This document shows positions 33,078 to 40,726 of a stretch of DNA of 64,000 bases, piece by piece. Numbering within the stretch: the first letter of the stretch is position 1; each line of letters starts with the position of its first letter. Source of the stretch: Chlorobiota bacterium (GTDB lineage Bacteria; Bacteroidota; Ignavibacteria; OLB7); the NCBI GenBank assembly GCA_016700335.1, contig CP065014.1, positions 2,309,479 to 2,373,478 on the forward strand, read 5' to 3'. The notes beneath the pieces are model-generated. The model had not been told where the DNA came from. It searched no databases and saw only the letters and a program-made list of their open reading frames with translations. The position numbers and the translations under genes are program-made.

Positions 33078-33308
33078 TTGGTTGTATGTAAATTGAAATG
33101 CAAAAGTAATAAATGTGAAACTTTCTTAAACAAAGAAGTTGATGTCAAACTTTTAAACTCTATTTCTGAGGTTGTTTTTTCTGGTAAATTTATTAATTCA
33201 TCTGATGGTTTTTATATTAATGTTTCTAACATTCCTAATGGATTTTATAATGTTGTTATTAAGGTTGGTGATAAAAGAAGCTTTCAAAAATTAATTGTTG
33301 AGCATTAA
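33078..33308 (+). pseudogene. Orphan T9SS C-terminal sorting-domain fragment, a remnant CTD with no cargo domain
   Basis: 76-aa ORF. Residues 12-76 are 98% identical to the CTD of the BNR protein (34234-36444). No signal peptide and no N-terminal domain. Confidence 0.6.
33111..33308. repeat. Direct repeat copy A (198 bp, 2 mismatches to copy B), covering exactly the T9SS CTD coding segment
   Basis: Base-by-base alignment with 36247-36444. Divergence begins right after the stop codon and right before the CTD start. Confidence 0.9.
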
Positions 33309-33522: not shown

Positions 33523-34173
33523 ATGTTTAAGCCTAATTCAATTGCCGTTATTGCGTCGCAGACAGCAGACAGCAGACAGCAGACAGCAGACAGCAGACAG
33601 CTTTTTGCAAAATCATTTGCTTTAATCTTTTTTAGCATTATGATGCTTTCTTTCAATTCTTTTTATTCTAGTTCTCTTTGGGCTCAAGCTGCTCCTTGTA
33701 ATTGTCCCCTTGGTTGGGGTTCTGTTACTTTACTTTTCCCTATTACTTGTGCTAATGTTGAAGTCAATGTTTGTTGTTCTCCGCCTGGCACTTTTCCTCC
33801 CCAAGCTTATATTTGCAATGTTACTGCTCCTTTGGGCGTTTGTAATCCGCCTACTCCTTCAATGTTCCAAGAAATTGCTGATGCTATTGTTGATAGAAAT
33901 CCTTGTGGGTTTCCTTGTAATAATATCCCTTCAGACTTTATTGTTACTGGACCTTGTAGAGCTAAAGTTTCAATCCAAAATATTAATGGAGTTTTAAGAA
34001 ATGTTATTGATTGGGCGGCTGATTCATGTTCTGTTGAGCCTTGTTATCATACTTATAAAGTAACATGTGATGATTTTGGGCATATCACTAAATCTAAAAC
34101 TGGACCTGCACATTCCTCCTGTGATAGAATTCCTACATCCCCTGGTCCTGATTGTTATAATGTTTGTAACTAA
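33523..34173 (+). CDS. Cysteine-rich secreted protein of unknown family, with a heptanucleotide tract in its 5' region
   Basis: Hydrophobic signal-like segment after the repeat-encoded QTADSRQ x3. About 20 Cys in the mature ~170 aa. Strong NNT codon bias (Pro almost all CCT, Ala GCT), unlike the flanking housekeeping genes. Confidence 0.55.
   Translation: MFKPNSIAVIASQTADSRQQTADSRQLFAKSFALIFFSIMMLSFNSFYSSSLWAQAAPCNCPLGWGSVTLLFPITCANVEVNVCCSPPGTFPPQAYICNVTAPLGVCNPPTPSMFQEIADAIVDRNPCGFPCNNIPSDFIVTGPCRAKVSIQNINGVLRNVIDWAADSCSVEPCYHTYKVTCDDFGHITKSKTGPAHSSCDRIPTSPGPDCYNVCN
33558..33601. repeat. Heptanucleotide microsatellite (GCAGACA)x6 plus a partial copy
   Basis: Six perfect tandem 7-nt units counted directly in the sequence. 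The unit length is not a multiple of 3. Confidence 0.95.
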
Positions 34174-34181
34174 CATTTTTG

Positions 34182-34220
34182 CCCAACTTGAAATTATTTT
34201 TTCAAGTTGGGTTTAATTTT
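34182..34220 (+). terminator. Rho-independent terminator between the Cys-rich gene and the BNR gene
   Basis: CCCAACTTGAAA-TTATTTT-TTCAAGTTGGG hairpin, then TTTAATTTTT. Confidence 0.55.
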
Positions 34221-34233
34221 TAACTCTAAACTT

Positions 34234-36444
34234 ATGTGTAAATTTTATATTGTTTTTCTATTAATATTTTTATCGTTTCAAAACCTTAAGTCTCAACAAT
34301 TTTGGTCTAAAACTTACAGTACATATTCAAGTTGTACTATTTCTAATGATAATACATATTATATTGTTGGTGATTTTGGTTTTATTATACGTTCAGTGGA
34401 TTATGGTACTAATTGGAATCTGTTAAATTCTTCTACTTCATTGAATTTAAATTCTATTATTTCTTTTTCAAATAATTCTTTGTTTGTTGTTGGTGATCTC
34501 GGTATTATACTTTCTTCCATTGATAAAGGAAATAGTTGGAAAAATATTCCTATTAACTACAAAAATAACTTAACTTCTGTTTGTTCTTTTGATTCATTAA
34601 ACATTCTAATTGTTGGTGATAGTGGATTGATTTTAAAATCAATAGATGGCGGAATTCACTTTGATAAAGTTAATTCCAATTCAAATAGTAAATTGTTCAA
34701 AATTGTAAAATCTAGTAACCATTCAGCAACAATTATTGGCGATAGTGGTACTATTCTTTACACCTCTAACAAAGGTATTTCATGGGAATCTAAGTTTAAT
34801 TATTTATCTGAATATTTATTTGATATAGATTTTTTTAATGAGCAAATTGGGTCTATTTCTAGTTATCGAGGACTTTTAAGAACTAATGATAGTGGTAAAA
34901 GTTGGTACAATTTAACTCAATCCAATAGTTCATTTTATACAATAAGGCATATTACTAGTGATTCATTAATTAAATTTGATAATTTTCTAAAAATTTCAAA
35001 TGATTCTGGGAAGAATTGGAAAAAAACTAATGATGTGGTTAATTTAGATCAATCAATTTATATTACTTCAACTTCAATAAATGATAATAATTGTCTAATG
35101 GTTGGAGCTCTTATTCTAGTATCTTATGATAAATTTAAATCAAATATTGCTATTTCAAAACTACAAGGCAATGGTATTAATGATTTAATAGCTTTTGATG
35201 ATACTAGTTTGTTTATAGGTCGTGATTTAAATAGCTATGGAGATAGAAGTTTTGATATGGGTTTGACTTGGAAAACTACTAATAGAGGGTTTTTTTCTGT
35301 TGATAAATTTATTCAAATCTCTCAAGATTCTGCTTTTGCAGTAAACTATAGTCATGGGATTTTCAAACCTTATGATTTAAGAATTACGGGTGACAGAGGA
35401 AATACTTGGGTTGCAAATGAAACTAATGTTAATCTTCCAACTAATGACAAAAATTCTTACTCAACTTTTAAAAATCTTTCTTTTGTTAATAAGGTTTCTG
35501 GTATTCTTGCAATTGAGATTAGAGGGGACAATTATGGTTATTTACTATATACACGAGATGGTTGTTTGAACTGGGATACTGCTCATGTTGATAACAACCC
35601 TAATAGAGGTTATTGGGGTCTTCTTTTAGTTAATGAAAAGTTAGGCTTTGCTTCTTCTCTTGATTTAATTAAAAATATTGATTCTTCTTTTACTACTACT
35701 AACAGAATTTACAAAACTATTGATGGGGGGATGAATTGGGTTACTATCAAGCAATTTGTTTCAGATTTTAATGATTCTGTTCATTTTAAAAATTTCTTCT
35801 TTAAAGATTCTTTAGATGGCTTTGCTGTCGGGCAGAATGCCAAACTTGGTGCTGTTCTTCATCATACTACTAATGGTGGTATTGATTGGATTACTACGCA
35901 ATTTAAAGGTGTTAATTCTTTAAATAATGTTAAGTTCTTTAATAATAATATCGGTTTTTTATTAGGTTCTCAAGGCAATTTATTTTCTACTTCTGATGGT
36001 GGTATAAACTGGGTTAAGGAGAAACTCTGGTATGAAGATTTAGTCGATTCTTCTTTTAACTTAGAAGATATTTACATTATGCCTAACAGGAAAACTTTGT
36101 TCTTGAAAATGAGAATTGGAGATCGTGCACGCATTTTCAGAAAAACATTAACAAATCAAATTCCAATTAGTTCTGTTAACGAGCATAAATCTTTCAATAT
36201 AATTTCTGATATTTCTCCTAATCCTACTAATGATTTTGTTAATATTAAATGTGAATCTTTCTTAAACAAAGAAGTTGATGTCAAACTTTTAAACTCTATT
36301 TCTGAGGTTGTTTTTTCTGGTAAATTTATTAATTCATCTGATGGTTTTTATATTAATGTTTCTAACATTCCTAATGGATTTTATAATGTTGTTATTAAGG
36401 CTGGTGATAAAAGAAGCTTTCAAAAATTAATTGTTGAGCATTAA
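34234..36444 (+). CDS. BNR/Asp-box repeat (Ycf48/sortilin-like beta-propeller) protein with a T9SS C-terminal sorting domain
   Basis: At least 12 SxDxGxTW-type Asp-box motifs (SVDYGTNW, SIDKGNSW, TNDSGKSW, TIDGGMNW...). C-terminal CTD. Signal peptide starts at the internal ATG at 34234; the ORF track begins at 34207. Confidence 0.75.
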   Translation: MCKFYIVFLLIFLSFQNLKSQQFWSKTYSTYSSCTISNDNTYYIVGDFGFIIRSVDYGTNWNLLNSSTSLNLNSIISFSNNSLFVVGDLGIILSSIDKGNSWKNIPINYKNNLTSVCSFDSLNILIVGDSGLILKSIDGGIHFDKVNSNSNSKLFKIVKSSNHSATIIGDSGTILYTSNKGISWESKFNYLSEYLFDIDFFNEQIGSISSYRGLLRTNDSGKSWYNLTQSNSSFYTIRHITSDSLIKFDNFLKISNDSGKNWKKTNDVVNLDQSIYITSTSINDNNCLMVGALILVSYDKFKSNIAISKLQGNGINDLIAFDDTSLFIGRDLNSYGDRSFDMGLTWKTTNRGFFSVDKFIQISQDSAFAVNYSHGIFKPYDLRITGDRGNTWVANETNVNLPTNDKNSYSTFKNLSFVNKVSGILAIEIRGDNYGYLLYTRDGCLNWDTAHVDNNPNRGYWGLLLVNEKLGFASSLDLIKNIDSSFTTTNRIYKTIDGGMNWVTIKQFVSDFNDSVHFKNFFFKDSLDGFAVGQNAKLGAVLHHTTNGGIDWITTQFKGVNSLNNVKFFNNNIGFLLGSQGNLFSTSDGGINWVKEKLWYEDLVDSSFNLEDIYIMPNRKTLFLKMRIGDRARIFRKTLTNQIPISSVNEHKSFNIISDISPNPTNDFVNIKCESFLNKEVDVKLLNSISEVVFSGKFINSSDGFYINVSNIPNGFYNVVIKAGDKRSFQKLIVEH
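36247..36444. repeat. Direct repeat copy B (partner of 33111-33308)
   Basis: See copy A. Confidence 0.9.
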
Positions 36445-39337: not shown

Positions 39338-40597
39338 ATGTCTTTTACTGATGATATATTAAGAGGTAATCAAAGTTCTATAGGTTTTGATGCTAAAACT
39401 TTTTTTATTACAATTGTGTTAATTACAATTGGTTTGGTTTCAATTTATAGCGCAACTTATGAACCTGGTGGATCCCATATATTTTATTCCCAACTTACTT
39501 TTGCATTTGCTGGCATTGTTTTAATGTTAGTTATTGCTTATTTGCCAGAAGGTGTTTTACAATTTTTTGCTTACCCTTTGTATGGTTTAGGTTTGATTTT
39601 ATTATCTGCAGTAATATTTTTTGGGACAATAAGAAATGGGGCTCGAGGATGGTTTGTTTTTGGACCATTATCTTTTCAACCAGCGGAGATTGTGAAATTC
39701 TTTATATTGATTTCGGCCTCAAGAATTGTGGGTCTTGAAGCAAGAAGCCTAAAAAATTGGAGAGATATGGGTTTGCTTTTATTAATTTTTTTAATACCAA
39801 TTGGTCTAATTTTACTTGAACCAGATTTTGGCTCGGCTTCAGTTTATATGGTAATGATGATTGGTATTGGATTATGGGCTGGTGCAGATTTGTTTCTATT
39901 GTTTACATTAGTAGCACCATTAGCTGTAGCTATTTGTGCACTCATAGGGAATAATGAAATGTATATTTGTTTAGGTGTAATTTTAGTTATTATGGTTGCA
40001 TTTAGAAGATCAATTTGGGTCACAGTAACAGGTTTTTTAATTTCAATTTCATCAGGATTTTCTACTGGTTATATTTACCAAAACATTCTTCTACTTCATC
40101 AACAGAACAGAATTAAAACTTTTCTAAATCCAAATTTAGATCCTAAAGGTGCTGGTTATCATGTGCTTCAATCTTTGTTAGCTGTTGGATCTGGAGGACT
40201 GACTGGAAAAGGATTTTTGAAAGGTACTCAAACTCAGTTAAGATATATTCCCGAACAATGGACTGATTTTATTTTTTGTGTTCCTACTGAAGAGTTTGGC
40301 TTAATTGGTGGTGTTGCAGTATTATTATTGTTAGGGACTTTAATTTATTTTGCTATTAATACTGCTCGTAATTTAAGGAATAGATTTGCTTCAACAATTT
40401 GCGTTGGTATAGCAACAATTTTTTTGTATCACACTTGCATTAATATTGGAATGGCAATTGGATTAGTACCTGTTATGGGCATTCCACTCCCTTTTTTATC
40501 AAAAGGTGGTTCGTCTTTAATGTTAAATATGTCTATGGTAGGTTTGTTGATGAATTTTTATAGATTAAGAACTGATGTTAGAAAAATAGATTTATAG
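39338..40597 (+). CDS. FtsW/RodA/SpoVE (SEDS) family peptidoglycan glycosyltransferase
   Basis: Ten-TM topology and SEDS-conserved motifs (PAEIVKF, ...GIPLPFLSKGGSS). Confidence 0.85.
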   Translation: MSFTDDILRGNQSSIGFDAKTFFITIVLITIGLVSIYSATYEPGGSHIFYSQLTFAFAGIVLMLVIAYLPEGVLQFFAYPLYGLGLILLSAVIFFGTIRNGARGWFVFGPLSFQPAEIVKFFILISASRIVGLEARSLKNWRDMGLLLLIFLIPIGLILLEPDFGSASVYMVMMIGIGLWAGADLFLLFTLVAPLAVAICALIGNNEMYICLGVILVIMVAFRRSIWVTVTGFLISISSGFSTGYIYQNILLLHQQNRIKTFLNPNLDPKGAGYHVLQSLLAVGSGGLTGKGFLKGTQTQLRYIPEQWTDFIFCVPTEEFGLIGGVAVLLLLGTLIYFAINTARNLRNRFASTICVGIATIFLYHTCINIGMAIGLVPVMGIPLPFLSKGGSSLMLNMSMVGLLMNFYRLRTDVRKIDL

Positions 40598-40726
40598 ATT
40601 TATAGATTTATAGTTTTAAATTTTAAATTTTATCTAACAACATTCTTTTTTTTTGTAATTCATATTCAAACCATCCCTTTAAAATTCTTTGTATTTTTTT
40701 ATTAATAATCAGCAATTATATAACAT

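Follow-up and report, generated by a model that had tools for sequence, protein, structure and literature searches.

An exported cysteine-rich orphan protein, probably switched by an intragenic heptanucleotide repeat, in an uncultured Chlorobiota bacterium

The open reading frame (ORF) at 33523..34173 of a 64,000-nt stretch of DNA from a Chlorobiota bacterium (hereafter "the window") is best explained as encoding a disulfide-rich protein that is exported by Sec and represents a new family. A heptanucleotide repeat would switch its translation, and its role would probably be one in the cell envelope or extracellular, under a biotic pressure that fluctuates. We put the probability of this reading as a whole at about 0.6. 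We are more confident than that about the gene, its export, and the switch, but have low confidence in the role. Such a mechanism is already known, whereas the protein and the host lineage of the switch are new.

The ORF consists of 216 codons plus a stop on the + strand, exactly where an earlier annotation made without database searches (the sequence-only reading) had placed it. The identical protein is present in three database records (QQS66014.1, MBL0331416.1, and MFZ1573247.1), annotated as "hypothetical protein" of a Chlorobiota bacterium MAG, and the contigs carrying it are up to 3.15 Mb long. All 16 Cys residues are found within residues 59–215. The predicted mature protein, Q55–N216 (33685..34170, + strand), is 162 residues long and is also rich in Pro, with 20 such residues in the 160 positions that follow residue 56. 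Cys accounts for 10% of the mature protein, which is ∼11 times its mean frequency in the other long ORFs of the window (0.88%), and the probability of finding at least 16 Cys in 162 residues is 1.9e-12 (binomial, versus these other long ORFs). While the sequence-only reading was right about a very Cys-rich protein and about its CNCP, CC, and CGFPC motifs, its counts of about 20 Cys and about 170 mature residues were too high. The copy of the gene in a closely related contig, L001, encodes a protein that is ∼91% identical, with a dN/dS of 0.49. Since all the Cys are kept in five lineages, dN/dS is 0.49, and the structural model described below improves when an alignment is supplied, comparative evidence marks 33523..34173 as a genuine gene.

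As for its relatives, sequence searches indicate that the Cys-rich protein represents a new, very narrowly distributed family. Only a single cluster turned up among 5.8 billion proteins in a word-indexed search, and phmmer, run exhaustively over 1.84 billion representative proteins, detected four relatives, with identities of 89% (P0001), 60% (P0005), 50% (P0006), and 41% (P0007). No family members were added by a word-indexed profile search, and no further loci by scans of genome and metagenome contigs in which first the single protein and then the family alignment served as the query. Once the N-terminal parts of the relatives, which had been overlooked by gene callers, were restored, we compared the Cys residues in five lineages spanning ∼38–90% identity. 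In each of them, 16 of the 16 Cys positions are kept, with one lineage showing an additional pair and another one additional Cys. The protein has no match in Pfam, NCBIfam, or PADLOC at E values up to 1, and only two chance-level matches in PHROGs (E values of 0.12–0.13). Likewise, the family profile has no match among all PDB sequences at E values up to 10.

The structural model produced by AF2 from the single sequence is unusable (pLDDT of 41.5), but a confident model was obtained with the five-sequence alignment (pLDDT of 83.4 and pTM of 0.81). The predicted fold comprises 9–10 β-strands and one long α-helix (mature residues 58–71), and hhalign gave no sign that one half of the protein is a duplicate of the other. 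When this model was compared with 350,542 PDB chains using Foldseek, the best E value was 0.13 with a TM score no higher than 0.26, while the best E value in BFVD was 0.19. Characterized Cys-rich families, including metallothionein, thaumatin-like, Sel1/Hcp, and cell-wall-binding repeats, were considered and rejected, there being no profile or fold match. The description of the protein as unclassified, secreted, and of a disulfide type therefore stands, with no match in sequence or fold, a Sec/SPI-like leader, and 16 Cys kept in five lineages; the Foldseek search that the sequence-only reading had proposed found nothing significant in PDB or BFVD, and the characterized family that would have made the protein ordinary, such as metallothionein, did not emerge. 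Because the number of invariant Cys is even and the protein is predicted to be exported, these 16 residues most likely pair as eight disulfides.

The central finding on this gene is a perfect tandem repeat of the heptanucleotide GCAGACA, present in 6.3 copies (33558..33601, + strand; 100% matches in Tandem Repeats Finder), which we propose to be a slipped-strand tract. This tract forms codons 12–27 of the ORF, after the ATG but ahead of the signal-peptide core, and encodes ADSRQQT-ADSRQ. It is the only perfect multicopy repeat of its kind in the 64 kb, with 0.01 expected by chance. Reading frames were computed in silico for 1–10 copies in the window and in L004 and L005, two contigs with more distant homologues. 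Translation from the ATG of the window gene (33523..33525, + strand) leads into the mature protein only if the number of copies is 0 mod 3 (3, 6, and 9). When this number is 1 mod 3, as in a four-copy allele, the sole possible starts are two TTG codons in the +1 frame (33542–33544 and 33551–33553, + strand), and when it is 2 mod 3, the hydrophobic core is not preceded by any start codon. The repeats in L004 and L005 yield the same three frame classes (i.e., ATG, TTG-only, and no-start).

The number of copies is polymorphic in closely related contigs. Six copies are found in 9 of the 11 contigs of the close clade (the window, L001, and L028–L034), indicating that the tract is not wildly unstable. 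Contig L002, however, has four copies, and the resulting 14-nt gap is its sole difference from the window across 2623 nt. Contig L003 has the frame of the four-copy allele and a 12-nt deletion in addition. Although short-read assembly could in principle mis-size repeats, the 44 nt of the tract are well below read length. Four of the six alleles in which frames were analyzed (the window and L001–L005) are out of the ATG frame, with an intact mature ORF and all the Cys. Gene callers placed the start of out-of-frame alleles at Met40, as in P0003.

A similar organization is seen in distant homologues. L004 and L005, whose proteins are ∼40% identical to that of the window, harbor five and seven copies, respectively, of a different heptanucleotide, GGGCAAC, again situated after an upstream ATG and before the signal peptide, while the contig of another relative, L006, begins within the signal peptide, its repeat region not being covered. 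Between the repeat and the mature part, L005 offers no ATG, GTG, or TTG at all, and the repeat must therefore lie inside the gene and cannot belong to a 5′-UTR. The conservation of the place of the repeat and of its 7-nt period, but not of its sequence, points to selection for mutability itself. The locus thus displays four of the features expected of a contingency gene: a pure nontriplet repeat in the 5′ coding region, copy-number polymorphism, an effect on the reading frame, and a repeat at the same site in homologues. Since copy number varies in near-identical contigs and a 7-nt repeat is kept in place in homologues, we conclude that the repeat is probably a translational phase-variation switch and the gene a contingency locus. 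The sequence-only reading had suspected a phase-variation tract lying ahead of the gene and had suggested looking for it in homologues. The tract is indeed polymorphic, and L004 and L005 hold a 7-nt repeat of different sequence at the same site, but it is situated within the gene, at codons 12–27. When viral contigs were scanned for both heptamer repeats, only unrelated repeats were found.

Two side observations concern start codons and repeats elsewhere in the window. A second-frame TTG is found just before the repeat in three lineages (window 33542–33553, L004:168–173, and L005 ∼605–611). This might possibly reflect a three-level ATG/TTG/none switch, but it could equally be chance, and we attach no significance to it since, by a rough estimate, AT-rich DNA would provide such a codon by chance ∼50% of the time, and L004 does not count as independent of L005. 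If TTG starts function, several "OFF" alleles would not be fully off. Separately, an 8-nt tandem repeat, ATAGATTT, occurs in 4.1 copies (96% matches) at 40586–40618, where it overlaps the 3′ end of an ftsW/rodA-like gene and the spacer before ORF 40727. Apart from the GCAGACA tract, the window has no further short pure repeat, and this one could be a second variable tract.

The GCAGACA tract is followed by a predicted signal-peptide core (33610..33684, + strand), in which K30 (n-region) directly precedes a stretch of hydrophobic residues, 31–44, with a mean Kyte-Doolittle hydropathy of 2.4, and which ends in SLWA. SPI is predicted to cleave before Q55 (SLWA/QAAPCNC, the slash marking the cleavage site), a Gln that is invariant in the five lineages, and matching sites are found in L004 (VFS/QSCC) and L005 (LYS/QWCC). 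The features of Sec/SPI substrates obeying the Q-rule (i.e., a charged n-region, a hydrophobic core, a small residue in position −1, and a Gln in position +1) are all present, and the predicted Sec export of the Cys-rich protein is well supported. The precursor differs from other Q-rule SPI substrates, with which it shares the small residue and invariant Gln at the predicted cleavage site, by the unusual length of its leader: ∼54 residues, of which 29 form a repeat-holding extension before the n-region. This 54-residue leader is composed of the ATG, 11 codons, the 7-nt repeat, and the signal-peptide core. The hydrophobic core begins upstream of Met40, and a protein starting at Met40 would be without it.

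In the window, a Gln after a small residue is found in ORFs 2100 (S/QAQ), 4796 (S/QEK), 23080 on the − strand (A/QNY), 34234 (S/QQF), and 59497 on the − strand (S/QVN). A small residue followed by Gln therefore ends most of the SPI-type signal peptides of the window, these five in addition to that of the Cys-rich protein. The Bacteroidetes "Q-rule" thus seems to hold in this MAG labeled "Chlorobiota." Ignavibacterium is among the bacteria with reported high Q-values, as are some of those annotated as "Chlorobi bacterium" (PMC5837995).

For the exported protein, we rejected a lipoprotein reading, since by eye there is no lipobox ([LVI][ASTVI][GAS]C), the first Cys being preceded by QAAP in the window and by SQS and SQW in L004 and L005. 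We likewise rejected a T9SS-cargo reading, since the protein has no C-terminal sorting domain (CTD; PF18962/TIGR04183), with no match at E values up to 1. With neither of these two signals, nor any other for outer-membrane routing, its default location would be the periplasm, which is unusual for a phase-variable product.

The genomic neighborhood offers a possible functional link. The next gene (34234..36444, + strand) encodes a conserved neighbor, a 736-aa BNR/Ycf48-like propeller protein with a T9SS CTD, which matches Por_Secre_tail (PF18962)/TIGR04183 with E values of 5e-10 and 2e-5, as the mention of an adjacent T9SS cargo gene in the sequence-only reading had anticipated. A homologue of this propeller protein follows the Cys-rich gene in L006 (60% identity) and in L004 (32% identity). 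Between the two genes of the window lies a terminator-like element, made of a 13-bp hairpin and a T-rich tail (34181..34212, + strand), and equivalent hairpins are found after the homologues in L004, L005, and L006. Since this hairpin follows the gene in the window as well as in its homologues, the switch is expected to affect the Cys-rich gene alone. The two genes are bracketed by a pair of 202-nt direct repeats that are 99% identical. The downstream copy (36243..36444, + strand) is the CTD-coding end of the propeller gene, while the upstream copy (33107..33308, + strand) is an orphan piece from the 3′ end of a T9SS CTD, stop codon included, and abuts the start of serS. In addition, we observed a contig, L030:1–2737 (JGI 3300038762), in which the 3′ end of the propeller gene leads into a repeat with hybrid markers, which in turn leads into the Cys-rich gene. 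Such a junction would be explained by a tandem duplication, by excision as a circle, or by misassembly at the repeat.

A functional link between the Cys-rich protein and the propeller protein is possible, and one could go further and see in the former an accessory partner of its T9SS double-propeller neighbor (a binding subunit, a periplasmic chaperone or inhibitor, or a CTD-less passenger), with phase variation modulating the pair. This would fit with the gene order (Cys-rich gene, terminator, propeller gene), which is kept in the clade of the window and in the lineages where the propeller is 60% (L006) or 32% (L004) identical, with the lack of any secretion tag beyond the Sec signal, and with the enclosure of both genes as a unit by the CTD repeat. 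However, the strong terminator-like hairpin found between the genes in every lineage suggests separate transcription units, synteny in related genomes is weak evidence of interaction, and, to our knowledge, cotransport of a CTD-less partner protein is not established for the T9SS. We therefore consider such a partnership unlikely, even though it is the alternative that fares best.

The rest of the neighborhood is ordinary. Upstream of the locus are genes for a GT2 glycosyltransferase, an M20 peptidase, and a DUF3108 protein, followed by mazG and serS; downstream are genes for an ECF sigma factor and ftsW/rodA. No integrase, transposase, or other mobility gene is present near the locus, whose neighbors are housekeeping genes, and the locus layout is common to all close relatives. 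At first sight, the GC content of the Cys-rich ORF (38%, compared with 28.6% for the window) looks foreign, but we rejected this explanation because the excess sits at codon position 2 (0.50 versus a mean of 0.34) and originates from the Pro/Cys/Ala-rich composition of the protein. The GC3 of the ORF (0.207) is inside the host range (mean of 0.167, SD of 0.02). The "acquired cassette" invoked in the sequence-only reading is thus not supported, given the host-like GC3, the housekeeping neighbors, and the nature of the 202-nt flanking repeat, which is the duplicated 3′ end of the neighboring gene.

As for transcriptional control, a scan for sigma-70 promoters gave matches that are no more frequent than in shuffled sequence, and Rfam revealed no regulatory RNA in the leader region. 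In L004 and L005, whose proteins are ∼40% identical, ∼90 nt ahead of the start are strongly conserved (L004:3–90 versus L005:434–515; TATGCCGCGACTTAACAACCAAAGTTTGTTTTT...TCGTAAAT). This block may be a promoter or operator, and no counterpart of it is visible in the window's own upstream region.

Comparison with L001, a strain that is otherwise ∼97–98% identical, shows that the mature part of the protein is a divergence hot spot. The mature part (33685–34170 versus L001:433–915) displays 40 differences in 477 positions, in contrast to 38 in 1249 in the flanks (i.e., upstream DNA, signal region, and downstream gene), which is ∼3-fold more (P = 6.6e-6). Moreover, dS is 0.147 in the mature part, compared with 0.03–0.04, and dN is raised too. 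Since dS is raised as well as dN, recombination that brought in a diverged allele is a likelier cause than simple positive selection, which we rejected in view of a dN/dS of 0.49, below 1. The differences between the window and L001 concentrate near the C terminus, with IPTSP in one and LLKPS in the other. At deeper divergence, the Cys-rich protein is no more diverged than its neighbor, with identities of 60% versus 60% and 38% versus 32%.

The sequence-only reading had offered a toxin, an adhesin module, or an anti-host effector as conceivable roles. The hot spot in close strains could likewise be taken to suggest a secreted toxin, a bacteriocin-like effector, or an adhesin module, in which the disulfides would stabilize the protein outside the cell. 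A small, exported orphan of narrow distribution with many disulfide-forming Cys would suit such a role, and phase variation is typical of surface adhesins. Against this, there is no toxin, adhesin, or immunity domain in the protein or its neighbors, no small immunity-like gene is adjacent, the signal for outer-membrane export is absent, and neither a paralogue family nor a polymorphic-toxin architecture was found. We regard this explanation as distinctly unlikely.

It might also be argued that there is no switch at all, the gene being constitutive and its 7-nt tract a tolerated coding repeat, with differences in copy number corresponding to assembly noise or pseudogenization. The uniformity of the close clade (six copies in 9 of the 11 contigs) and the irregular 12-nt deletion in L003 would be compatible with this. 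However, such a scenario leaves unexplained why a different heptamer occupies the same site in ∼40% identical homologues, why L002 and the window differ by exactly two units of a tract that is 100% pure, why L005 has no start codon after the tract, and why the four alleles out of the ATG frame, unlike decaying pseudogenes, keep an intact mature ORF. We hold it to be very unlikely. Finally, the Cys might ligate metal or shuttle electrons in the periplasm, as in a metallothionein-like or a thiol-based redox protein, but we find this hardly credible. In its favor, the mature protein is 10% Cys, with invariant CxC/CC and CxxxC motifs. Against it, no metallothionein, ferredoxin-like, thioredoxin, or cytochrome match was obtained at E values up to 1, CxxCH and CxxC redox motifs are missing, His is scarce, and the number of Cys is even. 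The model is a well-ordered β-rich fold spanning 162 residues and not a coil templated by metal, and Sec delivers the protein unfolded to an oxidizing compartment.

The reading that we favor, an exported disulfide-rich protein under the control of a heptanucleotide switch, would work as follows. Slipped-strand gain or loss of GCAGACA units would set expression at the level of translation. With 0 mod 3 copies, the ATG would be joined to the signal peptide and mature protein, and the gene would be ON. With 2 mod 3 copies, no start codon would be available before the hydrophobic core, and the gene would be OFF, while 1 mod 3 copies would leave only weak TTG starts and possibly allow low expression. 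When made, the precursor would be exported by Sec and cleaved before the invariant Gln55, releasing a Pro-rich α+β protein of 162 residues whose eight disulfides would form in the periplasm or outside the cell.

In host-adapted pathogens, phase variation driven by repeats belongs to textbook knowledge, and the possible layout of alternative ATG, TTG, and absent starts resembles lic1-type alternative starts. The closest parallel is neuO of Escherichia coli K1, the O-acetyltransferase gene of phage CUS-3, in which a heptanucleotide repeat in the 5′ coding region permits full-length translation only when its copy number is divisible by 3, and for which genomes in both ON and OFF states have been found (PMC13001214). 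As in neuO, the 7-nt repeat in the window is located just past the start, and the ATG frame is open at 3, 6, and 9 copies. The proteins, however, are unrelated, NeuO being a cytoplasmic acetyltransferase and the window protein an exported Cys-rich orphan, whose repeat precedes the signal-peptide core. Copy numbers are 4–7 here and 3–53 in neuO, and the window gene is chromosomal, between housekeeping genes, whereas neuO is on a prophage. The host here is an uncultured bacterium of the Chlorobiota/Ignavibacteria group. In Haemophilus, simple-sequence repeats, some of them heptanucleotide repeats, switch surface-related genes, and their copy number differs by strain (PMC2651432). The contingency loci of Haemophilus influenzae and Neisseria (lic, hmw, and TonB-receptor genes) are similar to the window locus in that frames or promoters are switched by simple-sequence repeats, but those belong to host-adapted pathogens and have known surface functions, whereas the organism here comes from metagenome assemblies only. 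With respect to T9SS cargo proteins (Por_Secre_tail/TIGR04183), the Cys-rich gene adjoins, and is conserved with, the gene of a CTD-bearing cargo, but its product has no CTD of its own and is thus no cargo by this defining feature.

The most likely role of the Cys-rich protein would be that of an envelope or extracellular protein facing changing biotic pressure (from phage, grazer, or competitor), possibly together with the T9SS propeller protein. A bolder version, to which we give little credence, would have a three-state switch (high expression from the ATG, low from a TTG, and none where a start is missing) of a new disulfide-knotted fold, all of whose relatives would carry a 7-nt contingency repeat. 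This CTD-less protein would surface with its conserved T9SS double-propeller neighbor as a variable receptor or decoy against phage or grazers, the two-gene module being copied or lost by recombination via the 202-nt CTD repeats, as at the L030 junction. If this were true, no earlier contingency-locus system would have been described in the Chlorobiota/Ignavibacteria lineage or in any free-living bacterium of wastewater; our literature search for repeat-driven phase variation in Chlorobi found no report.

Together, these findings would extend repeat-driven phase variation, with unusually clean comparative evidence, to an uncultured environmental bacterium. The probable switch flags an orphan Cys-rich protein as ecologically important, and this protein is a well-defined target for structure determination, with 16 invariant Cys, a confident predicted structure, and no fold match. 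More generally, the locus offers a route to the pressure, such as phage or predation, that may reward ON/OFF bet-hedging in activated-sludge-type communities.
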